32,081 nt of DNA from sequence record NZ_CP063125.1. The stretch is one strand, 5' to 3'. A program made the position numbers and the translations under genes. Numbering within the stretch: the first letter of the stretch is position 1; every line of letters starts with the position of its first letter. The DNA comes from a plasmid. Shown here in pieces: positions 14,771 to 32,081 of this stretch. The notes under the pieces are model-generated. The model had not been told where the DNA came from. It did not search any database and worked only from the letters and a program-made list of their open reading frames with translations.

Positions 14771-14787
14771 ATCTTCTCCTTAAATGA

Positions 14788-15471
14788 TTAGTAACCAAAT
14801 TTAGCCTTAAAATTTTCAGCTTTTCTGTTTTCTTCCTTCTTATAATCTTCCATTGCTTGACGATGTTGTAATTCAATGTTACGTTCAAAGCTCTTTTCAG
14901 CTTCGCTCATTGCAAGCTGTTCTTGATCGTAACGTAGTTTTTCAATCGCTAATTTATTCGCTACGTCTTGCTTTTGCGCCGGTGTTTGAGCGGAATCAGC
15001 CAAAACTTTTAAATTGTCTAAGTTTTTGATTCGGCTTTCGATTTTTTTCAGATATTTTTTAGAAAAATCTGTATAAGAAATGAGCTTGTCAAACTGCTTT
15101 TGAACTTCCGGATTATCAGATACTAAGCCATAAGATTCGCGTAATTGCGAAAGACTTTCGCCTGTTAAGCTAATTACATCGTTAGTTAAATCTGGGATAG
15201 AGTTTAGAAATGAATCCCCTCTTAACAAATCAGCGATTCCCATATTTCCCTCTAATCGACGTTTTGTGTCGTTTGCAAAATCGCGGTACTGCTGAATTTG
15301 TGTTTGTGCAGCCTGTAATTGTTGCTGTAACTGAGCAAGTTTTTGCATATCACCCGATACAATCGCAGAAAGTGTAGCACCATCAACGGTAGGGACTCCG
15401 CCTGCAAAAGATTGACTTGTAGTAAATGCCATTGTGAGTGCAATTAAGGTCGGTTTGATAACGTTTTTCAT
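14788..15471 (-). CDS. virB5: VirB5-family minor pilus/adhesin subunit
   Basis: The signal peptide is MKNVIKPTLIALTMAFTTSQSFA. The protein is 227 aa, helical and Q-rich. The start has a GGAG SD. The operon position fits. Confidence 0.65.
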   Translation of the reverse strand: MKNVIKPTLIALTMAFTTSQSFAGGVPTVDGATLSAIVSGDMQKLAQLQQQLQAAQTQIQQYRDFANDTKRRLEGNMGIADLLRGDSFLNSIPDLTNDVISLTGESLSQLRESYGLVSDNPEVQKQFDKLISYTDFSKKYLKKIESRIKNLDNLKVLADSAQTPAQKQDVANKLAIEKLRYDQEQLAMSEAEKSFERNIELQHRQAMEDYKKEENRKAENFKAKFGY

Positions 15472-15492
15472 ATTAAATCTCCATTGAGTTAA

Positions 15493-17907
15493 TTAAATTG
15501 ATTCTGTTGGTTTACCATTCGCTTGTTCAAAGCGTTTTTGTTTCATTCTTTCTAAGAATGGTTCAATCCAGTTATTCGGATTATCGCCGTAGATTTGACG
15601 AATTTTTTCACATTCAATTTGTCCTTCCGTTGTACCGGAAATAATCGGGAAAAACTCGCTGCAATGGCTTAAATCAAAGTGTAGTAATGTCGAATAAATC
15701 CCTTGTTTAACAAGCATCTTGCGACTTTCTTTATCTAAACTGGAAAGAATAGCAAAATCTTTTTCTGTTAAGCCTACGCGTTTATAACCAATCATTTCAT
15801 CATCATAAACGGCTTCCGGATTCGGCAGCATAATCTTCGTTGGTGTTTGCTCTACAATCGCCGGGAAAATTTCACACTGAATTGCGTCCGCCGGAGATTG
15901 TGAAACAAGACCGATAAATTCGCCGGTTAAACGCCCCGTCTTTAATGTTTGCTTAATCATATTTTGGGTTGTAGGGTAATTACACGGCATATAAAACTCT
16001 TCAACAATCGTGAGTAAGCGACGACCTGATTTTTTCATTAAATTTTTATAAAATAATAGAATCGCTAAAATTGGCTCTGTTGCCGGGTGATCTTTAGTTT
16101 CCAAAATAACACTTGTATCAAAGCCGATTTTGTCAAACTCATAAGGATTAAATAAGTTTTTCGGACTATCAACCGTCCAGGCTAAATCGCCATCTGTAAA
16201 ATAGCACCACCGCGCTAAACGAGCATAAAGCTCAGAACTTGTTGGAATACTTTGTAACACTAAACTGAAACGGCGTTGTTCTAGTGGTAAAAGCATAACC
16301 GCGTCCACAGCATTTTTAATATCAAGATACTCCATATCGGAAACTAATCCGCGATAATCTTTCGCGCAGCTTGCAACAAATTGATATAGGAATTGAAGTA
16401 ATGCCGGGCTTGCATTTTCTTCTAATTGGAACGGGTTTAATCCTGTAGGCACACCGCTTTCAAGTGTGAAGTAAGTTCCGCCGTAAGCGCGAACATAAAG
16501 CTCTGTTGAACGTTTGTAATCAACCACAAATAATTGAGGGTTAAAACGCTGTAAAAAGGCGACAAACATAGCTTCAAAAGTTGTTTTACCTGTACCAGTT
16601 GCCCCTAACATTAAAAAGTGTCCGGCAATCATTTGTCCGATCACATTTTTATCCAATTCGGAATAATGCGTATTCATATAATATAAGCCTTGTGTTGGCG
16701 TTTTAATTGGCATAATTGCCGAACCATCGCCAAGAGGATTATATTCAGCTTTACCGCTGAAAAAGTTGTGAAGTGAAAAACCGCAAGCAAGTGATGTACT
16801 CGGTCTAGCACTATTTACAGGACGGTACTTTGAAGCCGGCATTACACTTAAAAAGGCAAACATAGCGTCTAACGTAGCACGCGACCAACGCGCACCTAAG
16901 CCTTTATCGGTAAAGGCTGAAATCACGCGTGAGCCGTTTTGTACGGCTTCCTTTGCAGTATTGCCAAAAATAAGCATTGCTGCTTGATAATCGCCAAACG
17001 TAATTTCACCAGTACTAAGAAAGGCTTGCGCCATCTCAAGTTCTTCAAGTTCGCGCACCGCATTATCGCCGGCAGAATCTAAGCGGTTAATTTGACGGTC
17101 AATTTGGTTAATTGTCTTTTGTGAAGTCGTGAAAATAAATGACTGTGATAAAATAAACTCATACGGCAACTCTAATAAAAAATCCCACATTCCGGCTCGC
17201 GTTTCTGCCGGATAACCTTTTAACAGGTAAGCTGTGCCATATTTTGATTTTGTGCTTGATTTTGAACGCACTTCAAAAAAATCATAGTTAAAAAACCAGT
17301 CGCTATCACAAATTGAATCAATTACCTCTTCATCATTGAGCGGTAATTGGACTTCATTTAAATTTAGTAAATAAGATAAAAATTCATTATTTTTGCAAAG
17401 GCTAACACTTTCGTTAATATCAACGACTTTTAGTATTGTGCCGTTGTAACGTCGAATCATTGTGCTTGATAATTCTGCGATAGCGTCGCATTTTGCTAAC
17501 CCATCGTTAATATCGCTGTATTTCAACACAAACGTAATATAGTAATGCGTGTTATAAAAATTATTGTTGTCGTTCTTAAATGTTGTAAGGTAAGTATCAA
17601 CAAGATTCTGAACGAATGGTGATTCAAATTGATAGTCTTTGTCAAAATGCGCTTTTTTCTTAACAATATGCGTCCATACGCCTAAATTTCCGCCGTATTC
17701 TTTGCCAAGATTCAAGAAAAAGTCATCAAGACTTGTGAAGTAACTATATAATGTTTTGTCTGAAACAGATGTATGAGATGTACCGGTTAGCTCAAGTGTA
17801 AAAATCATTTTATCTTGAGCCGTAATCACATATTCATTGATATTATTGCGATAGTCAGGCAATAAATTTTTAATCGAACTAACGTTTCTTAAATTGTCGG
17901 CGCGCAT
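15493..17907 (-). CDS. virB4: VirB4-family T4SS ATPase
   Basis: The protein is 804 aa with the Walker A motif GATGTGKTT. Its start overlaps the end of virB3. Confidence 0.9.
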   Translation of the reverse strand: MRADNLRNVSSIKNLLPDYRNNINEYVITAQDKMIFTLELTGTSHTSVSDKTLYSYFTSLDDFFLNLGKEYGGNLGVWTHIVKKKAHFDKDYQFESPFVQNLVDTYLTTFKNDNNNFYNTHYYITFVLKYSDINDGLAKCDAIAELSSTMIRRYNGTILKVVDINESVSLCKNNEFLSYLLNLNEVQLPLNDEEVIDSICDSDWFFNYDFFEVRSKSSTKSKYGTAYLLKGYPAETRAGMWDFLLELPYEFILSQSFIFTTSQKTINQIDRQINRLDSAGDNAVRELEELEMAQAFLSTGEITFGDYQAAMLIFGNTAKEAVQNGSRVISAFTDKGLGARWSRATLDAMFAFLSVMPASKYRPVNSARPSTSLACGFSLHNFFSGKAEYNPLGDGSAIMPIKTPTQGLYYMNTHYSELDKNVIGQMIAGHFLMLGATGTGKTTFEAMFVAFLQRFNPQLFVVDYKRSTELYVRAYGGTYFTLESGVPTGLNPFQLEENASPALLQFLYQFVASCAKDYRGLVSDMEYLDIKNAVDAVMLLPLEQRRFSLVLQSIPTSSELYARLARWCYFTDGDLAWTVDSPKNLFNPYEFDKIGFDTSVILETKDHPATEPILAILLFYKNLMKKSGRRLLTIVEEFYMPCNYPTTQNMIKQTLKTGRLTGEFIGLVSQSPADAIQCEIFPAIVEQTPTKIMLPNPEAVYDDEMIGYKRVGLTEKDFAILSSLDKESRKMLVKQGIYSTLLHFDLSHCSEFFPIISGTTEGQIECEKIRQIYGDNPNNWIEPFLERMKQKRFEQANGKPTESI

Positions 17908-18238
17908 TGTATTTTTCTCTTTTTAAATCATCATCGCTTGATAAGCAAATTACTTTATTGTTACCTTGAAAGAGCTTGACAAAGAACGCCCGAACTTGCC
18001 ACTTAATTTGAGCAAGTGCATTCGGATTATCTTCACAAGCAATTTTTAAAAAGAACAAATAAATAAAACTAATAATAGGAATAGGTAGTGCATAAGTTGT
18101 CATTTCATAGAAACTAGCTATCATTACTGAAAAAACACTTATACCACCTAAAATTAACGTTGGCATAAGTGGTGTACCTATTACCTTAACAACGGCGGGT
18201 CGATTCATACCGTTAAATGATGGATATTTTTCTTCCAT
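17879..18238 (-). CDS. virB3: VirB3-family small membrane protein
   Basis: The start has an AGGAGG SD. The protein is 119 aa with two hydrophobic segments. It lies between the pilin and the virB4 ATPase. Confidence 0.6.
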   Translation of the reverse strand: MEEKYPSFNGMNRPAVVKVIGTPLMPTLILGGISVFSVMIASFYEMTTYALPIPIISFIYLFFLKIACEDNPNALAQIKWQVRAFFVKLFQGNNKVICLSSDDDLKREKYNARRQFKKR

Positions 18239-18298
18239 TAACGCCTCCTATTTTTAAGTATTCAAGGTAAGTTTTTACCTTGAATACAATATATTGAA

Positions 18299-18607
18299 TT
18301 ATGAAAAAATCCCTTGTGCCCAAGTTACGCCTTTTACGATACCGCCGGCAATCGCACCATAAACGAATGCCATAGCAACGTCAGCCCACGAACCGCGGTG
18401 CATAAGTGCCATAATTATGCAGTACATAGCGTAAATAAGTGTCGCAACAAGGATAAAACCATAAAGCCACGTTTTAACTTCATTTGCTTTGTCTGTTGCG
18501 GCATCTAAACCGCCGGCATAAGCACCAGGAATAAAAAAGATAAGTGCTGCAATGGCAAGAAGAGCCAAAACATTTAATGCACTTTGTTGTTTTTGAGTTA
18601 AGGTCAT
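18299..18607 (-). CDS. virB2: VirB2-family pilin precursor
   Basis: The start is taken at ATG 18607 (AAGGA SD), giving MTLTQKQQSALNVLALLAIAALIFFIPGAYAGG.... The protein has a long signal/leader and two hydrophobic helices, which is typical pilin architecture. Confidence 0.65.
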   Translation of the reverse strand: MTLTQKQQSALNVLALLAIAALIFFIPGAYAGGLDAATDKANEVKTWLYGFILVATLIYAMYCIIMALMHRGSWADVAMAFVYGAIAGGIVKGVTWAQGIFS

Positions 18608-18624
18608 ATACGTTTTCCTTAAGT

Positions 18625-19302
18625 TTATCTTCTGAAATCCCCAAACACGTCCCACGGTTTAGCCGGAGGGGGAGGAGTTTGAGGGGCTTGAATTGAGGTT
18701 GTTTGTTGAGCTGCAACCTCATTTGACGGAGAACCTGAACTATCAGATTCAGTCAAAGGCTTGATAGCCGGAACTTTATAAGTCTTTGCGGCGGATTTAT
18801 TGATACGATCAACATAAGAAGAACCGTCTTTCTCTTTTTTAAATCCGCGAATCTCATTACCTGAATAGTAACAAGACGCGGCTAGACGTAATAAATCTTG
18901 TTCCGGTTTATTTGGATTGTTTTTTTGTGCCGACGCATAACAGGCTTTAAATATGCCGGCTCCGGCTTCAATGTTCTTGCACGCCTGGAACATATTCGAC
19001 TTATTCATACCGTATTCAGTAAAGTTCTTGCTATTTACTTGCATTAAACCCACGGAATAGCTACGGTGTTTTGTCGGGTGATTTTCCAACTTAGCAATCG
19101 TTTGCAATGCCTCATCTTCTGATTGAGGCTGCTTAAACTTGAATTTATCCTCCTCTTTCACGTCGCTATCATAAACGACTGCGATTGCATAAGGGTTGCG
19201 ACTACTTTCAACACCAATGACAGTATGCAGTGTTTCCGGTGCAACATCAGTAGCGCATTGTGCAAATAAGCTAAGTAACATTTGTGTAGATAATGAAGCC
19301 AT
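18625..19302 (-). CDS. virB1: VirB1-family lytic transglycosylase
   Basis: The SLT-domain motifs VIGVESSRNPYA and GLMQVN are present. The protein is 225 aa and is the first enzyme gene of the operon. Confidence 0.8.
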   Translation of the reverse strand: MASLSTQMLLSLFAQCATDVAPETLHTVIGVESSRNPYAIAVVYDSDVKEEDKFKFKQPQSEDEALQTIAKLENHPTKHRSYSVGLMQVNSKNFTEYGMNKSNMFQACKNIEAGAGIFKACYASAQKNNPNKPEQDLLRLAASCYYSGNEIRGFKKEKDGSSYVDRINKSAAKTYKVPAIKPLTESDSSGSPSNEVAAQQTTSIQAPQTPPPPAKPWDVFGDFRR

Positions 19303-19897: not shown

Positions 19898-20917
19898 TTT
19901 ATTTCTCCTGTGGTTAAAATGCAATATATTTTACACATATATATTGTATATTTTTAAGATTCGCGCCTTTATAGGAGCAAGATGGTGAGTATTCTAGCAA
20001 AAAACAAAGACGTTTTATAAATTTTGTAGGGTATAAATCAAATAATCTTGATCTTTAAAGTGAATAGGGGTAAGATCCTTGTAAATTCGCAACCGGTATC
20101 GATGATTTGCCGGTCTATTTACAGATACGTAGATAGAAAAAAAGCCCGCGAATGCGAGCTTTTTTCCTTGTGTTTGGAACGCTACCAACGTTTTAAACAC
20201 GGTGCAGTTAAGGAATTTGAAAGTGACTAACTGCGAAATTTCAATTTAATTATACTGATTTGTGTTTTATATGCAAGCACTTTCGGTTAAAAAGTATATT
20301 TTGCAGTCGCATTAAATTTATCGCGAAGTAAATTTAATAAAAATCACCAAAAGGCTTATGCCTCTCTTCAAAAATCTTAACTAGCACTTAATCATATTTT
20401 GATTGGGTGGTAGGAATAAGAGTCACTGGCAATCAATCTTATAATCTAATACCAGCGGAAACAGCAAATTAGATCGTTACGAGTGGTTATTTTATCGAGT
20501 GCAGCGCATTTATATTGGGTAACCTTGAATGCAGTGTCAGCGAGAAATAGCGGTTGAGAACGTGCTGTGCGGTTATATTGCCGTAATCTCAACAGGGCGA
20601 GGAAATATATCTGATCGCCTCCTAGATGAAAGCGGGTCGGCTCCGGGTATGCTAAATGCAACGAGCAAACGTTTTTTTAGGTACGCACTAAGTCTATAAC
20701 AGAAATGTATAGGCTTAGGGCGAGTATTACCTAAACTCTGCCTAGTCTTCCAAGTCTGCTGTGTGGACGATCCTTTTAATATAAAGATCATTTTAGTTGT
20801 CTAGTTATATACATTTCTTAAATTAAATAAAAAAAAGTTAGCTTATTAGAAGTTAAATGATGAAATGTATTGGATTTTAATTTTAAAAATAACTTGTTTT
20901 TTATTACTTTTTTACTT

Positions 20918-20947
20918 GTATTTAATCTTAACTTTGTTATACTTCCT
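20918..20947 (+). promoter_or_regulatory. Candidate sigma70 promoter of the par operon
   Basis: The sequence TTTTTTACTTGTAT-(16/17)-TATACT shares the TTTTTTACTTG(C/T)AT block with the accessory-gene promoters. It is followed by an AGGAGG SD and the parA ATG. Confidence 0.4.
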
Positions 20948-20991
20948 ATTAAATCAATGTTTGAACCTGTTCAATCTTAGGAGGATTTAAA

Positions 20992-22189: not shown

Positions 22190-22213
22190 AGAACAAAGAA
22201 ATTGTAAACTGAA

Positions 22214-22256
22214 AAAGAGGGAGTAAATAGCGCAGTCTTTTACTCCCTCTTTTTTA
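22214..22256 (+). terminator. Rho-independent terminator of the par operon (copy A). An identical copy lies at 27412-27454
   Basis: The hairpin AAAGAGGGAGTAAA-loop-TTTACTCCCTCTTT is followed by a 6-T run. Confidence 0.7.
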
Positions 22257-22884
22257 GTTGAGCAACCGGAGCCGTCAGGCGTAGGGCGGTAGCCTTTGGG
22301 GCTTCCCCTCCCGTTGGTCGGGTCGGGCTATATTTTTCGGCTGCACGTCCGGCAAAAGCCGGTCTTTTCGCTCGAAAAACTCAACCAAATAAAACAGGCT
22401 GCTTTTTCGCGGCCCGTTTTATCTGTTTTCGCCCGTCCGGGTTACTATCCCTAAGCTGTTCCGTCCTCCGGACGGCTTAAAAGGGCTTCGCCCCTTAAGA
22501 ATCCCCATAAAGGGGTTAAAAACCCCTTTAAACCCCCCTTATTCTTTTCTTGCACTTTTACTCTCCTCTTCCCTCGATAACTTCTCTACGGGCTTTATTT
22601 TTCGTTAGGGTTCTGCAGGGCGTGAATGCTTGTGGGCTGTTTGATTTTGAGCGTGTTAAACGGTCATTTCTCCGCTCTGACATCGAGCAGGGTTCCGGGC
22701 AAATGCGGCGGCTTTGCCCTTCCATCAAGGGGGGGATTCTTGCAAATCCCCCCTTAATAATCCCCTTTCTTGTCGGAAAATTTAGCAATATATGCAAGTA
22801 AAAAAAGACTTTATTTAATAAATAAAAGTGCGAATATATTTAGATTTATTTTATAAATAATGCAAAAAATAATGTAAAAAATAC

Positions 22885-22913
22885 TTGCAATTAAAAGCAA
22901 AAAAGACTATAAT
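22885..22913 (+). promoter_or_regulatory. Sigma70 promoter for the J-domain gene. An identical copy at 28083-28111 drives the DUF2958-like gene
   Basis: The sequence is TTGCAA-17 nt-TATAAT with a T/A-rich upstream region. Confidence 0.6.
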
Positions 22914-22996
22914 TTATCTCAAGTTGAACGGGAAAACGTTCAGCGAGTTAGCCAAATGTGGCTAGTCTTTTCTTTATACCTAAATGAGGTAATCAA

Positions 22997-23518
22997 ATGA
23001 ATATCAATGAAGCTCTTAATATCTTAAATCTTTCCGGCTCTGTAACAAAAGCAGATATTGCAAAGGCTTATAAACGTCTTGCTGTAAAATATCACCCTGA
23101 CAAAAATCCGACTGGTGCGGAAATGATGAAAATCATCAATGCAGCGTATGAAATGCTTAAAAATCTTGATTTAGAGGAAATTAAACATACCGATCAAGAA
23201 AACGCATATAACTACGCGGACGTTTTGGAAGAAGTGATCCGTGAAGTTTTGAAAATGCACGGCGTGATTATTGAAATCTGCGGTAACTGGATTTGGCTTG
23301 CGGGGGAAACCCGTCAATATAAAGAGCAAATTAAGGCTTTAGGCTGCTTGTGGGCTTCTAAAAAGAAACAATGGTACTTTCGACCGACTGAACATAAAAG
23401 TTCACGTCATAAAGCGTGGGATATGGACAAAATCCGCTCTCACTATGGTTCAGAAGTCTTAAAAGCAAATTCTTCTCTTAATGACTTCAAAAAAACAAGT
23501 TTACCGGCAGCAGCTTAA
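22997..23518 (+). CDS. J-domain (DnaJ-like) protein, 173 aa
   Basis: The N-terminal J domain has the YKRLAVKYHPDKN motif containing HPD. The gene has its own promoter, leader and terminator. Confidence 0.7.
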   Translation: MNINEALNILNLSGSVTKADIAKAYKRLAVKYHPDKNPTGAEMMKIINAAYEMLKNLDLEEIKHTDQENAYNYADVLEEVIREVLKMHGVIIEICGNWIWLAGETRQYKEQIKALGCLWASKKKQWYFRPTEHKSSRHKAWDMDKIRSHYGSEVLKANSSLNDFKKTSLPAAA

Positions 23519-23528
23519 TTTTATTGAT

Positions 23529-23550
23529 AGCCCGTGAAAACGGGCTTATT
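23529..23550 (+). terminator. Terminator after the J-domain gene
   Basis: The hairpin is AGCCCGT-gaaa-ACGGGCT, followed by a T-rich stretch. Confidence 0.5.
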
Positions 23551-23656
23551 GGGGCAAAATATGTGTTTAAATTTTTTAGATTTAGAAAGTAATAAAAGAG
23601 CCAAGAAAAGCTTAAATTAAAGCATTAAATAATCTTTAAAATACTTGTTTTTTTAC

Positions 23657-23685
23657 TTGCATTTTTAGTTTTATTTTACTATAAT
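23657..23685 (+). promoter_or_regulatory. Sigma70 promoter with the conserved leader for the 136-aa gene
   Basis: The sequence is TTGCAT-17-TATAAT, preceded by TTTTTTAC. Confidence 0.6.
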
Positions 23686-23779
23686 GTTTCAAGTTAAACG
23701 GGAATTGTTACTAAAGCTTACCATTTAACAATATGCCAAAAGTGGCAAAACTAATCTCAAATCTTAAGAGGATTTTCTT

Positions 23780-24190
23780 ATGAGCCTAAAAATTGAAAGA
23801 GCTTTTAAAAAAGCGGGTATCCCTGAAATGCCAATAGTTCGCCGTCATATTCTAGTTAATCTTGCAAAAGTGGGGGCTGATTTAGATAAATTAACAAGTA
23901 CAGAAATTGGCTTTATTATTAAAGCATTGCATATTGGTTATCACAACGCAAAAGGCAGTCAAGAAGCTGATTATATGGCTGATATGGGCTGCGTTTGGAT
24001 TGGTGGCGAAGTGCAAAAATTGTTACCAATAGAAGCCCTAAAAAGTATTCGAATCATTAAGGAAAGCAAGCCGATTGAAAAGAAATCTATTCCCTCTGGG
24101 TGGAAATATGGCGTGCTTCCTTATGGGTGGGATCGCGTTGAGTATGAGCGAAAAACGCGCTACAAGTTAGATTTTACAGAAAGCTGTTAA
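23780..24190 (+). CDS. Hypothetical protein (136 aa)
   Basis: The start has an AAGAGGA SD and the gene has its own promoter and leader. I recognise no family. Confidence 0.55.
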   Translation: MSLKIERAFKKAGIPEMPIVRRHILVNLAKVGADLDKLTSTEIGFIIKALHIGYHNAKGSQEADYMADMGCVWIGGEVQKLLPIEALKSIRIIKESKPIEKKSIPSGWKYGVLPYGWDRVEYERKTRYKLDFTESC

Positions 24191-24195
24191 AGTGT

Positions 24196-24224
24196 TTGAC
24201 AGATAATTATTTGAGGCGTACTAT
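24196..24224 (+). promoter_or_regulatory. Near-consensus sigma70 promoter driving a short noncoding transcript
   Basis: The sequence is TTGACA-17 nt-TACTAT, immediately after the stop of the 136-aa gene. Confidence 0.55.
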
Positions 24225-24230
24225 CTTAAC

Positions 24231-24349
24231 AAGCAATCAGTATTTTTGCTTTTGCACCCTGTAAAGGGTGAGTGTTGAAACAAAAAAACATAGAACTATC
24301 TTTTTGATAGCAAGAAGACCGCCTTTTTAAGAATTAGGCGGTTTTTTTG
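24231..24349 (+). ncRNA. Candidate ~120-nt sRNA or transcription-attenuating leader
   Basis: A consensus promoter is followed about 110 nt later by a hairpin ACCGCC-loop-GGCGGT plus a 7-T run. There is an internal hairpin CACCCT-gtaa-AGGGTG. No ORF with an SD lies inside. The 88-aa gene starts 37 nt after the T-run. Confidence 0.4.
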
Positions 24350-24385
24350 TGTTTAATTTTAAAATTTTAATATAGGGGTGTAAAA

Positions 24386-24652
24386 ATGCAAAAAAGAAGT
24401 AGAAGTATTTCTTACCGGTTACAGAAAACAAGCAACTCAGCAAAAAGAGTTGAAATTCTAACCGAATGGGCTAATCAATGGAAATTTGAGCATATTGATT
24501 TAATTGAACGCCTTAAAGGCGGAATTGATAATCAAGATATGAATGAAATTCGGATTGCTCTCGGGCAGTTAAGAGCAGTTACGGAAAAAAAACACGAGGC
24601 TTTACATAATATATTTAGATTTCTTTTAGATGATAGAAATGATAAAAAATAG
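24386..24652 (+). CDS. Hypothetical protein (88 aa)
   Basis: An AGGGG SD lies 8 nt before the ATG. It lies downstream of the promoter/terminator leader unit. Confidence 0.45.
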   Translation: MQKRSRSISYRLQKTSNSAKRVEILTEWANQWKFEHIDLIERLKGGIDNQDMNEIRIALGQLRAVTEKKHEALHNIFRFLLDDRNDKK

Positions 24653-24684
24653 CAAAATTATTTAAAAATAAAGTGTTTTTTTAC

Positions 24685-24713
24685 TTGTATTTTTAGTTTT
24701 ATTTTACTATAAT
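24685..24713 (+). promoter_or_regulatory. Sigma70 promoter with the conserved leader for the 194-aa gene
   Basis: The sequence is TTGTAT-17-TATAAT, preceded by TTTTTTAC. It is almost identical to the 23657 promoter. Confidence 0.6.
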
Positions 24714-24807
24714 GTTTCAAGTTAAACGGGAATTGTTGCTAAATCTTACCGTTTAACAATATGCCAAAAGTGGCAAAACTAATCTTAAATCTTAAGAGGA
24801 TTTCAAA

Positions 24808-25392
24808 ATGACTAATCAAGACTTGAAAAGCTGTTTCTCTACGGCAGTAACCGAATTTTTTAACACTAACCCGCTAAATGCTTTTTGGAAAAAAGCACAA
24901 AATGAGCTTGATTTCTGCGCTCAAATTCAAGGCGTGAAAGTGAGTATTGAATTTATTGTAGGATTTAGTCGAGTTAAAGCCGTTGTTTCTGTTGGTAAAT
25001 ATAGAGAACGGGGTTATTTCTACCATAAAATTTCTTTTTCTCTTGATAAAAAATCATTCGCTAATGATTTTAAAAGATTGGCTTTTGATAAAGTGGAAAG
25101 TGCAATCAACGAAATTGTGTCATATAGAAATGAACGCAAACTAATCGAAGAAAATTTTGAACATAAATTACAAGCCTTTCGCCGTTATTTTCCCTTTGAA
25201 GTTAATTGGTCGGGACGACTTTCAGCAAGTGGGATCTCAATGCCTAAAAAGCTAAGAGCTATTGAGCTTTCGGGGGTGAATGGCGAAAAAGATTATTATT
25301 TAAAGCAGCTAACTTTTTCATCTGATGATACTGATTTTTTAATGAAAATTTGTGCTTGCGTTTCTGAATTGATTAAACAAGAAAACGCATAA
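24808..25392 (+). CDS. Hypothetical protein (194 aa)
   Basis: The start has an AAGAGGA SD and the gene has its own promoter and leader. I recognise no family. Confidence 0.55.
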   Translation: MTNQDLKSCFSTAVTEFFNTNPLNAFWKKAQNELDFCAQIQGVKVSIEFIVGFSRVKAVVSVGKYRERGYFYHKISFSLDKKSFANDFKRLAFDKVESAINEIVSYRNERKLIEENFEHKLQAFRRYFPFEVNWSGRLSASGISMPKKLRAIELSGVNGEKDYYLKQLTFSSDDTDFLMKICACVSELIKQENA

Positions 25393-25469
25393 ATAAGTGA
25401 ATTTAGCGGTTAAATATCTTGATTTAGCCGCTAGTTAGGCAAATAATATCAATATATTAAGGCTTAAAT

Positions 25470-25760
25470 ATGAATCTACTATCAATGACTAAAAATCAAA
25501 TTTTTAATTTACTTTACAATCTTTCAGGTTACTCTTTCAACGAAAAAGCATTTGTTGAGCTGCTCAACAAACGCGGATTTGAAGCCTCAACGGGCAAAAT
25601 CAGAAATTGGCGACGTGCAAACACTGATAATCAAAATTACCGCCCTGTGCCGGATTTTGTCTTAGAAGTGATTTTTGAAGAGTTCTTTAAAGCAAAAAGA
25701 GCGAACGACGGCGTTTTAACGTTACCATTCATTGAACCAGTGAAAAAAACGAAAAAATAG
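25470..25760 (+). CDS. Hypothetical small basic protein (96 aa)
   Basis: An AAGG SD lies 8 nt before the ATG. A TAATAT -10-like box and an inverted repeat TAGCGG..CCGCTA lie upstream. Confidence 0.45.
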   Translation: MNLLSMTKNQIFNLLYNLSGYSFNEKAFVELLNKRGFEASTGKIRNWRRANTDNQNYRPVPDFVLEVIFEEFFKAKRANDGVLTLPFIEPVKKTKK

Positions 25761-25793
25761 TTACCTTGTAACTGATAAATATACGGAGAAATT

Positions 25794-26165
25794 ATGTTTT
25801 ATTATGTTGCTTATGATTTGGACGGTATTAAACTTTTTGAAACAGATGAAGATGGGATTATTCACGAATTTAAAGATGAAAATCATTTTTATGATCCTGA
25901 AGATAAGCTTATCTATTCCCAGTATAGCGGAAGAAAAGTTCCTACTTCAAATTATCAATGGGAACCTGAAGAAGCCAAAAAAACACTATTAGAATTAGCA
26001 TTAGAAAACGCTCAAAATAACGGCGATGGGCGAGTTTTATTTCAGCCTAATCAAAGTAAGAAAGATTTGATTGAGGATATAGAACAGTTCCTAGCAGATA
26101 ATGATGATATTGACGCGGATTTAGTTGAAGTGTTGAATAATATCATCAAGGAGTTATTGGAATAA
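25794..26165 (+). CDS. Strongly acidic small protein (123 aa, about 30 Asp+Glu versus about 11 Lys+Arg). Candidate DNA-mimic / anti-restriction-like protein
   Basis: The start has a GGAG SD. A palindromic operator-like AGTTACCTTGTAACT lies just upstream. The net charge is roughly -19 with acidic residues clustered at the C-terminus. It sits in the putative leading region. Confidence 0.5.
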   Translation: MFYYVAYDLDGIKLFETDEDGIIHEFKDENHFYDPEDKLIYSQYSGRKVPTSNYQWEPEEAKKTLLELALENAQNNGDGRVLFQPNQSKKDLIEDIEQFLADNDDIDADLVEVLNNIIKELLE

Positions 26166-26394: not shown

Positions 26395-26964
26395 TTAAGT
26401 GGCTTTTGCTTCTTTTCTCAACCTGTATGCTGTTGAATTAGATACATTGTATTTTTGAGCTAATTTAGCGATAGAATAATTTTTTTTGACATCACGCCGA
26501 AATGCCTTTTTCTGCTCTTCTGTGATCGCTTTAGGTCTGCCCCCTTTTCCTGCTTCACCTTTAGCCAATCTTCCCTCCAAAGTGCGTTCTCTTATCCAGT
26601 TTCTTTCCATTTCCGCTAATGAAGCCATAAAAACGCACTTCATTTTATCAAAAGGATCGTTACGCCTTTCTGTATCAATCATTCCGTCAAGGCTTTTTAG
26701 GCAAATTCCTCGACTTTCTAAATCTTCATATAAGTTTAAAAATTGGCTTGTACTTCGTCCTAGCCTATCTAATTTAGTTACTACGATTGTATCACCCTCA
26801 CGGGCGAAAGCTAATAATTCATCAAGCCTTGCTCGATTCTTTGATTTTTCCCCCGAATTTTTACCCACAAATATTTTAAAGCAACCCGCTTTTTCAAGTT
26901 GCTTTACTTGTTCTTCATAGCTTTGACCGACTGTACTTACTCGCGCGAACCCTATTAACGCCAT
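26395..26964 (-). CDS. Serine recombinase of the resolvase/invertase family (189 aa)
   Basis: The N-terminal catalytic motif is ALIGFARVSTVGQS, with GDTIVVTKLDRLGRS and a C-terminal HTH (YSIAKLAQKYNVSNSTAYRL). No transposase is adjacent. Confidence 0.85.
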   Translation of the reverse strand: MALIGFARVSTVGQSYEEQVKQLEKAGCFKIFVGKNSGEKSKNRARLDELLAFAREGDTIVVTKLDRLGRSTSQFLNLYEDLESRGICLKSLDGMIDTERRNDPFDKMKCVFMASLAEMERNWIRERTLEGRLAKGEAGKGGRPKAITEEQKKAFRRDVKKNYSIAKLAQKYNVSNSTAYRLRKEAKAT

Positions 26965-27400: not shown

Positions 27401-28191
27401 TGTAAACTGAAAAAGAGGGAGTAAATAGCGCAGTCTTTTACTCCCTCTTTTTTAGTTGAGCAACCGGAGCCGTCAGGCGTAGGGCGGTAGCCTTTGGGGC
27501 TTCCCCTCCCGTTGGTCGGGTCGGGCTATATTTTTCGGCTGCACGTCCGGCAAAAGCCGGTCTTTTCGCTCGAAAAACTCAACCAAATAAAACAGGCTGC
27601 TTTTTCGCGGCCCGTTTTATCTGTTTTCGCCCGTCCGGGTTACTATCCCTAAGCTGTTCCGTCCTCCGGACGGCTTAAAAGGGCTTCGCCCCTTAAGAAT
27701 CCCCATAAAGGGGTTAAAAACCCCTTTAAACCCCCCTTATTCTTTTCTTGCACTTTTACTCTCCTCTTCCCTCGATAACTTCTCTACGGGCTTTATTTTT
27801 CGTTAGGGTTCTGCAGGGCGTGAATGCTTGTGGGCTGTTTGATTTTGAGCGTGTTAAACGGTCATTTCTCCGCTCTGACATCGAGCAGGGTTCCGGGCAA
27901 ATGCGGCGGCTTTGCCCTTCCATCAAGGGGGGGATTCTTGCAAATCCCCCCTTAATAATCCCCTTTCTTGTCGGAAAATTTAGCAATATATGCAAGTAAA
28001 AAAAGACTTTATTTAATAAATAAAAGTGCGAATATATTTAGATTTATTTTATAAATAATGCAAAAAATAATGTAAAAAATACTTGCAATTAAAAGCAAAA
28101 AAGACTATAATTTATCTCAAGTTGAACGGGAAAACGTTCAGCGAGTTAGCCAAATGTGGCTAGTCTTTTCTTTATACCTAAATGAGGTAAT
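27401..28191. repeat. 791-bp direct repeat, copy B, identical to 22203-22993
   Basis: Base-for-base identity at a 5198-bp offset. It ends 2 nt before the ATG of a different downstream gene. Confidence 0.9.
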
Positions 28192-28633: not shown

Positions 28634-28655
28634 AGAGGGGATACCCCCTCTTTTA
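28634..28655 (+). terminator. Terminator after the DUF2958-like gene
   Basis: The hairpin is AGAGGGG-atac-CCCCTCT, followed by TTTT. Confidence 0.6.
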
Positions 28656-28687
28656 ATAAAAAAATTAAAAAATAATTTGTTTTTTAC

Positions 28688-28716
28688 TTGCAATTTTATT
28701 TTTAATTTGCTATTAT
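28688..28716 (+). promoter_or_regulatory. Sigma70 promoter with the conserved leader for the 83-aa gene
   Basis: The sequence is TTGCAA-17-TATTAT, preceded by TTTTTTAC. Confidence 0.55.
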
Positions 28717-29099: not shown

Positions 29100-29202
29100 A
29101 TTTCATAAAAAAAATTTAAAAATAAATGCCTTTTTGCTTGCATTTATTTTTAAGGCGTTTTAGGGCAAGGTTTAGATTTTTCTTCTCACTAGGTTTTGCT
29201 TG

Positions 29203-29286: not shown

Positions 29287-29610
29287 TTACTTTTTATCTT
29301 TAATAGCAAATTTCTTATAACTAGGACGCATAGATTCCAGTCTTTCTGTTACCATTTCTTTATGTATTCTGTTTGCGTATTCGTTAAGAGTTTTCCAGGC
29401 AATATAGGAAAACAATACACTTAAAATCAACTTGTTTACATATAATGGTAACTCAATAAAGATAATTTCTATTAAAACAGTACAACCTAAACTTGCAAAA
29501 AGTAGCTTTTTGTTGTTTCTCTTGTAGCAAATTACCCATAAAACGCAACTAAGACCTATGGCAATAATGTTTAAAAAATTTGCTAAAATAAATATGTAAA
29601 TACTTTGCAT
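29287..29610 (-). CDS. Small integral membrane protein (107 aa, about 3 TM helices). One possibility is an entry-exclusion-type protein
   Basis: The N-terminal half is hydrophobic. It is the last gene of the leader operon. Confidence 0.45.
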   Translation of the reverse strand: MQSIYIFILANFLNIIAIGLSCVLWVICYKRNNKKLLFASLGCTVLIEIIFIELPLYVNKLILSVLFSYIAWKTLNEYANRIHKEMVTERLESMRPSYKKFAIKDKK

Positions 29611-29621
29611 TTTACTTGCCT

Positions 29622-30386
29622 TTATTTTGATTTTAGCTCATTGTCAATGTTACTGATAATAATTTTTTGGATTTTATCAGCCTCTTTTGGCGCAATCTTT
29701 TTCACTTCTTCAAAGCCTTTATACAAGCCGACTTGATATGCCGTTTCTTTGTCTTCGGGTTGTTTTGATTTTGTGAGAATAAAGCCTGATACGGCAATGT
29801 TTATGATTGTTAGCCCAGTCAAAACCCATAATAATGGGGTTTTTGATTTGTTTAATACTTCTGATTTTGCTTGTGATTTTTGAGGTTGTACACTTTCAAA
29901 GGATTTTTTAATTTCCTCAATTTTCTTGTTAGAAAACGAATCAAGGCTTGTTATAACTTGATTATTTAAGTCTAAAACTGATTTTGAAAACGCCGTGTGC
30001 ATTTCTGTTCCTGCGTCATCTATTACTTCTAAGGCTTTTCCTATTCCGGCACTAAGTTCATCTAACTTTTCTTGTAATTTTGCGTCGATTACATCGCCTA
30101 TTTGTTTTGGGATTGCGTGTAATGATTCTGTAATTAAAGTAGAGTAGTACTCCATCACGTTTTTTTGCGACAGAATCACGGCGAGAATTGGATCATCTGT
30201 TGAGATTTTTATGTGTAGTTTAGCGAAGCAATCAATAATGAAATTTCTGATAAGCTGATCAAATTCTTCATCATTAAGTGATAAACGTTCTTTGGTTTTT
30301 TCTCGACTATCTTCAATTTTTGTTTGTAAATCGATTAAATCGGTTGTTTCCTGGATAACAGGTTCAATTTGATTTTCAAATTCCAT
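29622..30386 (-). CDS. Coiled-coil protein with a C-terminal membrane anchor (254 aa), in the TraM-like position of the leader operon
   Basis: The true start is ATG 30386 (MEFENQIEPV) with an AAGGA SD. The ORF-track N-terminal 61 aa are a read-through of the GC-rich repeat and are rejected. The TM helix is LLWVLTGLTIINIAVSGFIL. Confidence 0.55.
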   Translation of the reverse strand: MEFENQIEPVIQETTDLIDLQTKIEDSREKTKERLSLNDEEFDQLIRNFIIDCFAKLHIKISTDDPILAVILSQKNVMEYYSTLITESLHAIPKQIGDVIDAKLQEKLDELSAGIGKALEVIDDAGTEMHTAFSKSVLDLNNQVITSLDSFSNKKIEEIKKSFESVQPQKSQAKSEVLNKSKTPLLWVLTGLTIINIAVSGFILTKSKQPEDKETAYQVGLYKGFEEVKKIAPKEADKIQKIIISNIDNELKSK

Positions 30387-30402
30387 AATAGATCCTTTTG
30401 TT

Positions 30403-30560
30403 TTTGGGGCTTTCCCTCCCGTTGGTCGGGTCGGGCTATATTTTTCGGCTGCACGTCCGGCAAAGCCGGTCTTTTCGCTCGAAAAACTCAATCGAATAAA
30501 ACGGGCCACTAAAGCAGCCCGTTTTATTCGCTTTCGCCCATTCGGGTTACTATCCCTAAG
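30403..30560. repeat. Third, diverged partial copy (~158 bp) of the 5' core of the GC-rich repeat
   Basis: It aligns to 22294-22456 with scattered substitutions. One internal hairpin, AAAACGGGC..GCCCGTTTT, keeps its stem but has a different loop. Confidence 0.8.
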
Positions 30561-30592
30561 CCGGTTCAAAAAAGGGCGATAATATCGCCCTT
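30561..30592 (-). terminator. Rho-independent terminator after the TraL-like gene
   Basis: On the minus strand the hairpin AAAGGGCGATA-at-TATCGCCCTTT is followed by a T-run. Confidence 0.7.
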
Positions 30593-30596
30593 TTCA

Positions 30597-31337
30597 TTAT
30601 TCTGCGGTAGATTGTGTTTCGTTAAAGATAGGGTCTAATTGTTCGTAAATGTCGTTAAATACGCGTTTTAAACGGTTTTTAGCCATTAAGCCAAAATTAC
30701 TATCTTGAAGAGCTTCTACAAGGGTCAAACGTGATTTTGTCATTTTTTCTAAATCTGCGGTAAATGCGTCAGAATCACGATTTACGACTTTAATTACACC
30801 GGCTGTTTTATCTGCAACAACTTTTTTCTGCGTGTTGGAGATTTCAACATCACCCTGAAATTCGTTCAACCAAATAATCAATTTTACGTTTTTAGAATTT
30901 TTTACTAATTCATAAAGACTGGCTAAACCCTGTAAAGTATCACTTTGAGATTGTCCGCCGACAATTACAGTGTGAATAAAAACAGGTCTATCTAATTCAT
31001 CAAATAAATCAATAACGCCGTTATCTTCAATATATTTCATCATTGGAACAAATGTAGAAGCACCGTTATCAATAACGAATGTTTTATTTTCTTCATTTAC
31101 CATCAATTCAAAAATGTTATCAAATTTTGATTGGATAATTGCGCCATTTTTTAAAATTTCGATTGGATATGCGTTAATTCGTTCAAAACTTGCAAATGAT
31201 TTATTTACGGGGTCTGTATCTGCGCCGACTAAATCAACTTTTTTATAATCTAAAAAGTATTGTGCGAGTATTGAAGAAATAAATGATTTGCCTACGCCAC
31301 CTTTACCTTGTAATACAATGTTAATGCTATTATTCAT
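30597..31337 (-). CDS. ParA-like P-loop NTPase of the conjugative leader operon (TraL of RP4 / StbB of R388 type), 246 aa
   Basis: The Walker A motif GKGGVGKS is present. It is sandwiched between a small DNA-binding-type protein and a membrane coiled-coil protein next to the putative oriT. Confidence 0.7.
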   Translation of the reverse strand: MNNSINIVLQGKGGVGKSFISSILAQYFLDYKKVDLVGADTDPVNKSFASFERINAYPIEILKNGAIIQSKFDNIFELMVNEENKTFVIDNGASTFVPMMKYIEDNGVIDLFDELDRPVFIHTVIVGGQSQSDTLQGLASLYELVKNSKNVKLIIWLNEFQGDVEISNTQKKVVADKTAGVIKVVNRDSDAFTADLEKMTKSRLTLVEALQDSNFGLMAKNRLKRVFNDIYEQLDPIFNETQSTAE

Positions 31338-31781: not shown

Positions 31782-31854
31782 TTATTACCTCATTACGTTA
31801 GATTTTTGTAGTTTATTTCATAAAAAAAGTATAGTCAAACAAAATTTGCTTTCT

Positions 31855-31945
31855 TTTTGCTTTTTTTATGGTTTCTTATTGCTTCCATTATGCTTCTTTA
31901 TTGGTTTATTGTGCTTTTAATGTGCTTTCTTTATGGTTTCCATAT
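31855..31945. repeat. About 8 tandem imperfect 10-11-bp direct repeats (TTATGGTTTC-like) with phased T-tracts
   Basis: The units are TATGGTTTC, TTATTGCTTC, CATTATGCTTC, TTTATTGGTTT, ATTGTGCTTTT, AATGTGCTTTC, TTTATGGTTTCC and ATATGCTTTTT. Helical-repeat spacing implies intrinsically bent DNA or an array of binding sites upstream of the TraK-like gene. Confidence 0.55.
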
Positions 31946-32081
31946 GCTTTTTGTTGATTACTGTAATAATTTTACAGGCACGACAGCGATGTTTACAAAG
32001 TGCAAGCACCATTGTAAAATCGACCGTGCGAAAGGGGGAACCCTTTCAAACCCCAACGCCCTTACAGGCTAGTTTATCCCT

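Follow-up and report, generated by a model that had tools for sequence, protein, structure and literature searches.

A covarying, strand-biased multi-hairpin element of Pasteurellaceae conjugative plasmids and its possible role as a single-strand initiation signal

The window analysed here, a 32,081-nucleotide stretch of plasmid DNA (NZ_CP063125.1), contains three copies of a folded element. Copy C, or site 1 (30403..30561, minus strand; covariance model R1, 140 bits, E ∼1e-33), lies just beyond a gene for a TraL-like ATPase of the ParA/CbiA type (30597..31337, minus strand), annotated 'TraL(RP4)-like' in relatives. As the initial annotation had placed it, the copy occupies the gap between the bidirectional intrinsic-terminator hairpin that follows traL (30570..30594), which is directly 5′ of it in the minus sense, and the SD sequence and ATG of the next minus-strand gene. 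That gene (29622..30389, minus strand; start taken as the ATG at 30389), directly 3′ of copy C in the minus sense, encodes a 255-aa protein with 39–45% amino acid identity in relatives. Copies A (22295..22456, minus strand; found by repeat search, nhmmer and covariance model) and B (27493..27654, minus strand), identical to each other, lie 539 bp upstream of a J-domain gene and 538 bp upstream of a 144-aa gene. They are embedded in a 791-bp exact repeat (22203..22993 and 27401..28191, plus strand) that comprises a terminator hairpin, a 38-nt box, the element, a spacer of ∼430 bp, a sigma-70 promoter and a 5′UTR, and that stops 3 nt short of the J-domain gene's ATG and 2 nt short of that of the 144-aa gene. 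Plus-strand leading-region genes at 22997..26165 encode the J-domain protein, a DUF1456-like protein and others. A probable oriT region (31782..32081, continuing into 1–40) with 11-bp phased repeats and a conserved hairpin, GAAAGGGGGAACCCTTTC, is located between a traK-like gene and nikA. Pfam and NCBIfam searches of the neighbouring small proteins (255, 107, 143, 144, 83, 97 aa and others) were uninformative.

Comparison of the copies upheld the match of ∼158 bp to the repeat core from which the element had been recognised: global alignment of 30403–30561 with 22295–22456 or 27493–27654 (158 versus 163 nt) gives 143 identical positions, and the indels between C and A are one of 1 nt and one of 2 nt. 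The true end of copy C is ...CCCTAAGC, at position 30561. A repeat search resolved the similarity into three blocks, 30403–30464, 30462–30506 and 30514–30561, with 98%, 93% and 88% identity to 22295–22356, 22355–22399 and 22409–22456, respectively, and likewise to copy B; with nhmmer E-values of ∼1e-45 for the window copies, this is far beyond chance. Two hairpins had been described correctly, AAAACGGGC-cactaaagca-GCCCGTTTT at 30498–30526 (counterpart AAAACAGGC...GCCCGTTTT in A and B) and the CCGGC hairpin, CCGGCAAAGCCGG at 30457–30469 and CCGGCAAAAGCCGG in A and B. A 52-aa ORF at 22296–22454 was considered as a protein-coding sequence and dropped because the copies differ by 1- and 2-nt indels, Pfam hits are absent and the stems covary.

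The element is a previously undescribed folded element of Pasteurellaceae conjugative plasmids. Searches with nhmmer and covariance models yielded 35 full-length copies, 32 of them distinct, from plasmids of Haemophilus, Pasteurella, Rodentibacter, Glaesserella, [H.] felis and Exercitatus and from ∼20 metagenome contigs, usually with two or three copies per plasmid and with lengths of ∼135–175 nt (typically ∼165). Carriers include H. influenzae biogroup aegyptius plasmids, a P. multocida cfr/aadA resistance plasmid and an F-type Glaesserella parasuis plasmid (NZ_CP069309, L070). When both element types were compared by blastn (word size 11) with the 72,556 plasmids of PLSDB, which include hundreds of enterobacterial conjugative plasmids, only Pasteurellaceae plasmids were matched. 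Rfam 15 gave no gathering-threshold match in the window, pF3028 or the G. parasuis plasmid, and hits at E up to 10 were at chance level. First scans of genome and viral collections with a 20-mer from a window-type copy returned no matches because that hairpin is lineage-specific; a gapped pattern built from the invariant blocks recovered family members. Every member recovered from the genome collection lies on a plasmid contig, in one orientation throughout, and no chromosomal copies were found with these exact patterns, which could miss diverged ones.

The site between traL and the next gene is occupied in every related plasmid recovered, and copy C is therefore the ancestral, syntenic backbone copy, while A and B are part of a recently homogenised 791-bp cassette. 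This overturns the initial description of C as a diverged third copy, along with the concern that it might be a random recombination scar present only in this plasmid; the accompanying proposal, that the element belongs to the plasmid backbone and is not junk, agrees with the occupancy of the same sites across related plasmids. Three sites are shared by plasmids whose flanking proteins are only 28–72% identical. The flanks differ from site to site, and orientation relative to the backbone is constant at each, regardless of the direction of neighbouring genes. Copies within one plasmid are 89–100% identical and same-site copies in different plasmids 66–79%, a pattern that indicates concerted evolution and not simple drift. 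Besides the 791-bp cassette of the window, a 747-bp cassette in G. parasuis includes the element.

On the minus strand the element folds into four separate hairpins of 3–25 bp around a multi-way junction. H1 (30537..30546, CCC-loop-GGG) is paired in 100% of cells, is one pair shorter on both sides in three lineages and has a GAAA loop in most copies. H2 (30493..30530), the long variable hairpin noticed at the outset, has 17 bp here and 5–25 bp in relatives and carries most of the compensatory changes; in helices 3–4, 13 of 18 pairs have changed on both sides. The lower stem of H3 (30441..30486) is near-invariant, consisting of a G·U pair, UUUUU/AAAAA, N-N′ and GC, and its top, here CCGGC-AAA-GCCGG, is variable; pair 111–155 is AU 21 times, CG 8 times and UA 3 times. 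In H4 (30414..30435, CCCG-loop-CGGG with CCC/GGG flanks) both sides have changed in 5 of 7 pairs, and relatives have a wholly different sequence with pairing retained. H4 also differs between G. parasuis copies b and c, so copy b is no fresh duplicate. The hairpins are separated by invariant junction segments, GCTTAGGGATAGTTACC, GGCGAAAAC, GGTTGAGTTTTT, AAAAATATAGCCCGACC and GGTAAGCCCC, from which only one or a few of the 32 distinct sequences deviate. A further hairpin on the 5′ side was not accepted as part of the family, being a terminator at sites 1 and 3 and absent at site 2. RNAalifold and MFE predictions also offered long-range pairings (GGGC with GCCC, and GGG with CCC around AUAGUUA), for which there is neither support nor counter-evidence because the bases involved are invariant.

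Covariation over this structure is strong. Among the 32 distinct homologues, 94.2% of stem cells are paired, compared with 85.9% in shuffled alignments, and 20 pairs have changed on both sides where 9.1 ± 1.8 are expected; none of 500 shuffles reaches the observed value on any of five measures, and slid controls give pairing of only 32–47%. The suggestion that structure is kept while sequence changes, first made from the window copies, is thus borne out in a larger alignment of homologues gathered by nhmmer and covariance models. Pairing-preserving changes are also more numerous than had been listed: within the long hairpin, copies A and C differ, among other changes, by one compensated pair in which both bases have changed (A-U to G-C) and by several changes from wobble to Watson-Crick.

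The initial annotation had folded the plus strand, but it is the minus strand that folds better and is better conserved. MFE is lower on the minus strand in 25 of 26 sequences, by a mean of 6.6 kcal/mol; fold z-scores on the minus strand are −5.7 (copy A) and −4.9 (copy C) for RNA and −5.8 for DNA, compared with −3.4 on the plus strand. Pair cells hold 90 G-U and 15 A-C combinations under the minus-strand model, to which the covariation alignment was fitted, inflating the G-U count. G-U/G-T wobbles make up ∼7% of cells, one of them invariant. The A-C mismatch reported in the hairpin of A and B is confined to the plus strand and corresponds to a G-U/G-T wobble on the minus strand, where the hairpin is fully paired in all copies. 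The initial annotation was on the right lines in proposing that the element acts as a folded single strand, either RNA or transferred ssDNA.

Which strand enters the recipient can be approached from the position of the relaxase and from the F-type relative. Because the relaxase operon points away from oriT, the leading region extends towards lower coordinates, the relaxase lying in the lagging region (PMC11541004), and the window copies are ∼1.5, 4.4 and 9.6 kb from oriT. In NZ_CP069309 the copies are ∼0.34, 2.7 and 5.0 kb 3′ of nic, and the folding strand reads AATTTGCGTGGGGTGT/GT at ∼30630–30612, an exact match to the F nic motif, which on the transferred strand is TTTGCGTGGGGTGT/GGT (PMC2504302). 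The folding strand is therefore the transferred strand in this plasmid; nic motif and all three copies share it, with the first element ∼340 nt 3′ of nic. Judging from the relaxase position and from synteny with the F-type plasmid, the transferred (T) strand is probably the minus strand of the window. It would then template the plus-strand leading genes, as the T strand does in known leading regions (PMC11541004). An oriT mimic or secondary nic was also considered, the element containing TATCCCTAAGC and the window ending in ...TTTATCCCT/ACGGG, and was dropped because the oriT of pF3028 is without the motif and the element is common to MOBP and MOBF plasmids.

Since the element is apparently always on the strand that enters the recipient, just behind oriT, it is likely to help in copying or reading the incoming strand. 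We tentatively favour, with a probability of roughly 0.45, the view that it is a new signal for single-strand initiation, carried by the transferred strand and with a role like that of Frpo, ssi or sso elements. The leading regions of F and ColIb-P9 contain repeated, homologous ssi/Frpo elements with primer and promoter roles (PMC7690428, PMC12672017). By analogy, the T strand would form a strand-specific multi-hairpin structure at two or three same-orientation copies in the leading region. On entry into the recipient, H1–H4 would fold around the invariant junction segments, and a host enzyme acting on SSB-coated DNA, which could be primase, RNA polymerase or a primosome, would recognise the junction and make a primer or transcript there. 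Synthesis would proceed in the direction of oriT and of the T strand's 5′ end, so that the promoter-plus-gene cassettes 'ahead' of each element would quickly become double-stranded and hence expressible, and after recircularisation of the T strand the same priming could complete the complementary strand. We infer this priming or transcription activity; what the data show is the family, its covarying structure, the strand bias, the fixed orientation, the leading-region position and, in the F-type plasmid, the identity of the T strand. The element accompanies both MOBP/MPF_T and MOBF/MPF_F systems, with and without the shared RepA, which excludes the relaxase and Rep as its partner; a role for a host factor or SSB would fit.

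Several observations speak against this reading. A consensus promoter scan found only ordinary duplex promoters, all outside the element, and no rebuilt −35/17 bp/−10 arrangement occurs in any stem. The 540-bp spacer that separates element A from the J-domain gene was examined for a Frpo-like hairpin, and the candidate was rejected, offering only an 8-bp inverted match near the −35 and no rebuilt −10. The multi-way junction, the lack of sequence similarity to enterobacterial Frpo/ssi, a CTG primase start that not all copies share and the failure to recognise a plasmid primase also count against it. A bolder, rather speculative version of the initiation-signal reading would make the element a new class of signal, in which a DNA multi-helix junction with invariant joining strands, instead of promoter-like boxes, recruits a host enzyme/SSB complex that would start complementary-strand synthesis or early transcription. 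Such a signal could be common to plasmids with unrelated relaxases and mating systems, with gene conversion keeping the copies uniform within each plasmid. Equally, the element may be a new structured RNA that coordinates establishment and transfer operons.

Two features count against a DNA reading: the share of G-U/G-T wobbles is commoner in RNA than in DNA structures, and at most ancestral sites a minus-strand operon starts 8–250 nt 3′ of the element. Both point to an alternative that we regard as possible though doubtful, a cis-acting structured RNA of minus sense in the leader or intergenic regions of minus-strand operons (the 255-aa/107-aa genes, orf97-resolvase, T4SS and, in the F-type plasmid, the lytic transglycosylase). 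Such an RNA would control read-through, processing, stability or translation, possibly via a plasmid or host protein, on the model of antitermination and leader RNAs of conjugation operons. The folding strand is indeed the coding strand of these operons, and their genes begin shortly 3′ of the element at sites 1 (8–20 nt), 2 (53–211 nt) and 3 (∼220–250 nt) and 79 nt after G. parasuis copy a; site 1 has no room for a separate promoter, so the mRNA for the 255-aa gene must include the element. The frequent G-U pairs, with their invariant member, and the GAAA loop of H1 would also suit an RNA. However, the copies occupy gaps between transcription units, an intrinsic terminator stands directly 5′ of the element in the minus sense at sites 1 and 3, and the minus-strand operon that follows site 2 has its best promoter matches 3′ of the element or overlapping its 3′ end, which places the element outside the transcript; a sigma-70 scan found no match for a minus-sense transcript upstream at this site or upstream of copies A and B. 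No minus-strand gene at all follows G. parasuis copy b or window copy A. Nor is there an expression platform, in the form of a terminator after the element or SD sequestering, or an Rfam match, and signs of a free-standing sRNA gene are absent, with no U-tract after either end of the core and terminators 5′, not 3′. On balance, the context favours ssDNA of the transferred strand over RNA.

A single-strand signal could instead serve vegetative replication, as a lagging-strand or primosome assembly site like G-sites or n′-pas. Site 3 lies ∼200 bp from repA in pFJ6671, a degenerate copy adjoins a RepA-like gene in pF3028, RSF1010 and other plasmids have ssi signals close to oriV (PMC7690428), and strand specificity and structure would be as expected for a signal used in transfer. 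We nevertheless consider this unlikely. The constant spatial relation is to oriT and not to rep, the window showing the same arrangement without the shared RepA; in the F-type plasmid all copies are within ∼5 kb of nic and ∼5–10 kb from rep; and a bidirectional origin could not have copies from opposite ends of the replicon all on its lagging-strand template.

The hairpins might also be inverted-repeat half-sites for a protein that binds duplex DNA, at a res site, partition centromere or operator, as the serine recombinase gene close to site 2 in all plasmids and the presence of ParA genes could suggest. This is highly improbable: the sequence of half-sites should persist, whereas here stems are exchanged for unrelated sequence with pairing kept; the strand asymmetry in MFE and in G-U over A-C cells would be meaningless for duplex DNA; and three direct res sites, of which a replicon normally has one and these plasmids would have two or three, would let the resolvase delete the intervening DNA. 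A selfish miniature repeat (MITE- or REP-like) or functionless recombination scar would account for multiple copies homogenised within each plasmid and for a GC-rich sequence with sharp boundaries in an AT-rich plasmid, but is scarcely credible given the shared sites between divergent flanking proteins, the near-identical junction blocks, the many compensatory changes and the single orientation, ends (TTGGGGCTT... and ...CCCTAAGC) that are not inverted repeats, flanks without target duplications, and the failure of the exact-pattern scans to find chromosomal copies.

How an incoming single strand comes to be copied and read during its first minutes in the recipient is under active study, so far almost only with the F and IncI1 plasmids of E. 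coli, through their Frpo/ssi hairpins. The family described here adds an independent case from outside the enterobacteria that differs in architecture and covaries with unusual clarity, and it is found on plasmids with transfer systems of both the P/I type and the F type. Should it prove to be a priming or ssDNA-expression signal, it would define sequence features recognised by a Pasteurellaceae host enzyme and offer a compact, testable target for blocking plasmid establishment; if it acts as RNA, it is an uncatalogued structured RNA tied to conjugation operons. Whichever applies, the element can now be annotated with a covariance model.

Among known systems, the CUP repeats of IncN and IncW leading regions are direct repeats of several hundred bp, each upstream of a gene and carrying a promoter, and by this description the element-containing cassettes of 791 bp in the window and 747 bp in G. 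parasuis resemble them; CUP repeats, however, are known as duplex promoter/operator modules and are not known to contain a covarying multi-hairpin core. The sso elements (ssoA, ssoU, ssoT and the sso of ICEBs1) are similar in form, being strand- and orientation-specific multi-hairpin ssDNA elements of ∼150–300 nt. They conserve the loop motifs RSB and CS-6 (TAGCGT); in our family TAGCGT is not conserved: where present it lies within the H4 stem, and other copies have it replaced. They also belong to Gram-positive rolling-circle hosts, in contrast to plasmids that use RepA and are presumed to be theta-type. Functionally, sso elements recruit host enzymes for complementary-strand synthesis, and some are needed after conjugative entry (PMC7690428; see also PMC4595007). 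Primase- or primosome-type ssi (G4-type, phiX174 n′-pas, RSF1010 ssiA/ssiB) are, by description, likewise hairpin clusters on SSB-coated ssDNA without promoter boxes, and they occur on conjugative and mobilisable plasmids (see references in PMC7690428). They may differ in their 5′-CTG-3′ primase start, for which our copies are mixed: CTG is found in H3 of most (GAGCTGAAGC) but is absent from window-type copies (GAGCGAAAAG). RSF1010-type ssi moreover need a plasmid primase, and none was recognised here.

A further close parallel is with Frpo and ssi1–3 of F and ColIb-P9 (IncI1), although blastn against the 72,556 plasmids revealed no sequence similarity to them. Frpo/ssi elements form one long imperfect hairpin that rebuilds double-stranded −35 and −10 boxes, whereas ours is a four-hairpin junction with invariant joining segments and without such boxes; at site 2 it stands ∼430–610 nt from the gene with an ordinary sigma-70 promoter between, one copy lies inside the traK-traL operon, and the host range is that of Pasteurellaceae. 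Both are repeated, mutually homologous, structured elements of at most a few hundred nt (PMC7690428, PMC11541004, PMC12672017). Both belong to the transferred strand of the leading region, where their orientation is constant and they stand upstream of genes templated by the T strand, and for the Pasteurellaceae element we propose a like dual role in priming and early expression.

The third copy of the element in the window (copy C, 30403-30561), when compared with copy A (22295-22456) and the identical copy B (27493-27654), all on the minus strand, showed 143 identical positions with indels of 1 and 2 nt, which bears out the match to the repeat core reported in the initial annotation; both hairpin details quoted there are also present in the sequence. 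Alignment of copy C with the traL-downstream spacers of pF3028 and pFJ6671 revealed the same element, with quite different stems and identical joining segments. A gapped pattern built from the invariant blocks and scanned over a genome collection and metagenomes detected it in plasmids of Rodentibacter abscessus, [Haemophilus] felis and Exercitatus varius and at 24 metagenome loci, and two Glaesserella parasuis plasmids were added from PLSDB. Using nhmmer and covariance model R1, we recovered 35 full-length copies (116-217 bits), of which 32 are distinct.

The minus strand of each copy forms four hairpins (H1 to H4, 5′ to 3′) closed by GCUU(A)/(U)AAGC. Covariation statistics, calculated on a model-based alignment of the distinct sequences with 500 shuffles and slid controls, demonstrated standard pairs in 94.2% of cells (85.9 ± 0.4% in shuffles), changes on both sides in 20 of 47 pairs (9.1 ± 1.8) and double changes in 85 cells (17). 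None of the 500 shuffles reached any covariation measure, and slid controls paired at only 32-47%. The proposal that structure is kept while sequence drifts is thereby upheld, and covariation does appear in a larger alignment. A free RNAalifold run on the same alignment recovered H2, the lower stem of H3 and part of H4. H4 and H2 are swapped wholesale between lineages: H4 is found as CCCG-ACCAA-CGGG, CACGC-UUUG-GCGUG, CUAUGC-AAC-GCAUAG or CUGCA-UUAU-UGCAG, and H2 is 5 to about 25 bp long. The joining segments GCTTAGGGATAGTTACC, GGCGAAAAC, GGTTGAGTTTTT, AAAAATATAGCCCGACC and GGTAAGCCCC are identical in all or nearly all distinct copies, even though identity between the flanking proteins is only 28-72%. 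The oriT-proximal G. parasuis copy is the chief exception: in it, GCGAAAAC...GGTTGAG is replaced by GCAGAGAC...GGCTCTG, coordinated changes that by inspection give H2 a longer base.

In 25 of 26 sequences MFE was lower for the minus strand than for the plus strand, with a mean difference of 6.6 kcal/mol, and fold z-scores for copies A and C on the minus strand were -5.7 and -4.9 as RNA and -5.8 as DNA, versus -3.4 for the plus strand. Modelled pairs include 90 G-U against 15 A-C cells, and pairing is 94.2% when read on the minus strand versus 88.6% on the plus; these counts lean towards the minus strand, as a minus-strand model was used to fit the alignment, a bias that the MFE comparison does not share. 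Since the minus strand is the folding strand, the A-C mismatch described as repaired in copy C is a G-U to G-C change on that strand.

Mapping of the window proteins onto every element locus defined three recurrent sites. Site 1, the gap between traL and a 255-aa gene, is occupied in every MOBP relative, and copy C is therefore the syntenic backbone copy at an ancestral site, not a diverged third copy or a scar; it is bounded by the bidirectional post-traL terminator hairpin (30570-30594) and the ribosome-binding site that precedes the 255-aa gene. In IncI2 plasmids, as seen in E. coli pLD67-1-MCR1 (2283-3744), a single base separates the traL homologue from the gene after it, so the terminator-plus-element insert at this junction is specific to Pasteurellaceae plasmids. 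Site 2 separates the orf97-recombinase operon from the J-domain gene; site 3 separates repA from the start of the type IV secretion operon and holds a copy in Rodentibacter, in pFJ6671 and in two metagenome contigs. A shortened, degenerate site-3 copy in the gap between the RepA-like gene and the secretion operon of pF3028 (8541-8623, 56 bits) shows that copies can decay.

A 791-bp exact repeat (22203-22993 = 27401-28191) contains copies A and B, a pair that reflects a homogenised cassette. An independent 747-bp exact repeat in G. parasuis starts inside the element; both repeats span the element, about 430-500 bp of spacer, a sigma-70 promoter and a 5′UTR, and they reach the ATG of two different plus-strand genes. 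Copies within a plasmid are 89-100% alike (80-96% in G. parasuis) and same-site copies in the window and other plasmids only 66-79%, which points to concerted evolution. Just left of copies A and B is a 38-nt box, GTTGAGCAACCGGAGCCGTCAGGCGTAGGGCGGTAGCC (22257-22294 and 27455-27492), with about 95% identity to sequence on small plasmids from other genera (N. gonorrhoeae pJD4-type beta-lactamase plasmids, P. multocida pJR2, a 2.6-kb Glaesserella plasmid and A. pleuropneumoniae); this similarity ends exactly at the element start. The GC-rich spacer from the site-2 element to the J-domain gene (window 22460-22800; element loci L049, L018, L067, L057 and L053; 25660-26150 in G. parasuis NZ_CP069309.1) contains a few blocks conserved across plasmids, such as CGCAAGGTTTCGGCAGG and CTCCATTAAGGC...GCCTTAA. 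It folds better than shuffles as ssDNA (z = -3.8) and may hold a second functional element.

ORF and Pfam scans indicate that the window is a conjugative plasmid, with nikA/mobC-like and LPD7-relaxase genes (41-4277, plus), genes for topoisomerase III, SSB and TrbM, a VirD4 and VirB11-to-VirB1 type IV secretion operon (about 7000-19300, minus), a ParA gene (20992, plus) followed by a plus-strand block of small genes that includes a J-domain protein (22997-23518) and a DUF1456-like protein, a serine recombinase (26395-26964, minus) and a traK-like/traL/255-aa/107-aa operon (31781-29287, minus). Its nearest public relatives, the 32-kb pF3028, pF3031 and pF1947 of Haemophilus influenzae biogroup aegyptius and pFJ6671 of Pasteurella multocida, share about 70% DNA identity across traL. 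The window ends meet within the traK-like/nikA intergenic region, the probable oriT, and split a palindrome (32065-32081 joined to 1-12; TTTATCCCT/ACGGGATTT); the record thus looks like a circular plasmid cut open within the oriT region. The TATCCCTA motif of this palindrome recurs in every element, at its plus-strand 3′ end; as the motif is absent from the pF3028 oriT, we treat this as a coincidence. Adjoining the probable oriT are phased 11-bp TGCTTTCTTTT-like repeats (31847-31949), with analogous GCGGTTTAAGT/GCGGTTTATTT repeats at the same place in pF3028; they probably represent accessory-protein binding or bent DNA.

The RepA proteins of pF3028, pFJ6671 and the G. parasuis plasmid are mutually 75-82% identical, and no match to them was found anywhere in the window. 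Its replicon may be a different one, possibly RNA-primed, at 19925-20990, a stretch of about 1 kb where cumulative GC skew reaches its minimum and long ORFs are lacking. On the minus strand of pFJ6671, the interval from repA to the site-3 element holds a near-consensus promoter, TTGCAA-17-TG-TATAAT, with a strong terminator about 65 nt beyond it (29539-29661); the two may mark a small gene for a countertranscript of the replicon. Most small leading-region genes in the window are preceded by an AT-rich promoter/operator motif, ...TTTTTTTACTTGCAT-17 nt-TATAAT (23627-23684, 24655-24712, 28652-28700, 29108-29150 and 29586-29628), with inverted copies that lack the -10 inside the 791-bp repeats (22770-22816 and 27968-28014), an arrangement that looks like a regulon under one repressor.

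When loci are oriented by the element, neighbouring genes always take the orientation seen in the window, whether at site 1, flanked by two minus-strand genes, at site 2, upstream of plus-strand genes, or at site 3, upstream of minus-strand genes. G. parasuis NZ_CP069309 combines an F-type transfer system (MobF relaxase, TraA-TraG) with the same RepA (75-82% identical) and leading-region genes as the relatives, and carries minus-strand elements at 30125-30276, 27806-27960 and 25498-25653. Its minus strand at about 30630-30612 reads AATTTGCGTGGGGTGT/GTAAAATC, identical at 14 of 14 nt to the F nic on the transferred strand, 5′-TTTGCGTGGGGTGT/GGT-3′ (PMC2504302), and the folding strand is therefore the transferred (T) strand there; the first element begins about 340 nt 3′ of nic. 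This F-type plasmid is the decisive case for the position and orientation of the element. PLSDB labels it non-mobilizable, despite a full F-type secretion system, MobF relaxase and nic match; it is very probably conjugative. In the window, the relaxase operon is directed away from oriT, and the lagging region is where relaxases are typically encoded (PMC11541004), so we infer that the leading region extends towards lower coordinates and that the T strand is the minus strand. Distances from oriT to the copies would then be about 1.5, 4.4 and 9.6 kb, and the T strand would template the plus-strand genes, as reported for leading-region genes (PMC11541004).

The element accompanies both MOBP/MPF_T and MOBF/MPF_F systems, with the shared RepA or, in the window, without it; it is therefore unlikely that the relaxase, the mating apparatus or Rep is its partner, and a host factor or the plasmid SSB, which all these plasmids encode, is more likely. 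We propose, at a probability of roughly 45%, that by analogy with ssi, Frpo and sso signals the element may direct priming or transcription on the T strand. The strand entering the recipient would fold into the element junction, and a primer or transcript made there would be extended towards the T-strand 5′ end, and thus towards oriT. Extension from site-2-type copies would cross the adjacent promoter-gene cassette, and from site 1 traL, traK and oriT, quickly rendering cassette promoters double-stranded; after recircularisation, the same priming would complete the complementary strand.

Against an ssDNA signal, no rebuilt promoter boxes, and no primase start conserved across all copies, were found in the element, G-U/G-T wobbles are fairly frequent, and minus-strand operons begin a short way downstream of most ancestral sites as well. 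These features make a cis-acting RNA a serious rival, if a doubtful one. In minus sense, the element at sites 1 and 3 is immediately preceded on its 5′ side by an intrinsic terminator, and for the minus-strand operon downstream of site 2 in G. parasuis the best promoter matches fall at or beyond the 3′ end of the element; no sigma-70 match for minus-sense transcription was found upstream of copies A and B, and the conserved core contains no terminator of its own. The copies therefore occupy gaps between transcription units, except that any read-through mRNA for the 255-aa gene at site 1 must contain the element. An ssi for vegetative replication fits the data less well and is improbable, a protein site in duplex DNA is very unlikely, and a selfish repeat, also a poorer fit, hardly merits consideration; some of the probability is assigned to none of these readings.

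The element matches no Rfam family, and the titles and abstracts of literature naming these plasmids concern other topics and offer no description of it. We consider it a new and well-supported family of structured elements whose function is suggested by analogy. The role put forward above is also the one proposed for Frpo/ssi of F and ColIb-P9 and for sso of rolling-circle elements (PMC7690428; PMC12672017). These signals appear to be nearest to the element in role, but it is not a member of their families: it has no homology to Frpo or ssi1-3, it lacks the single long hairpin with -35/-10 boxes that characterizes Frpo, and none of the conserved motifs of sso is conserved in it.
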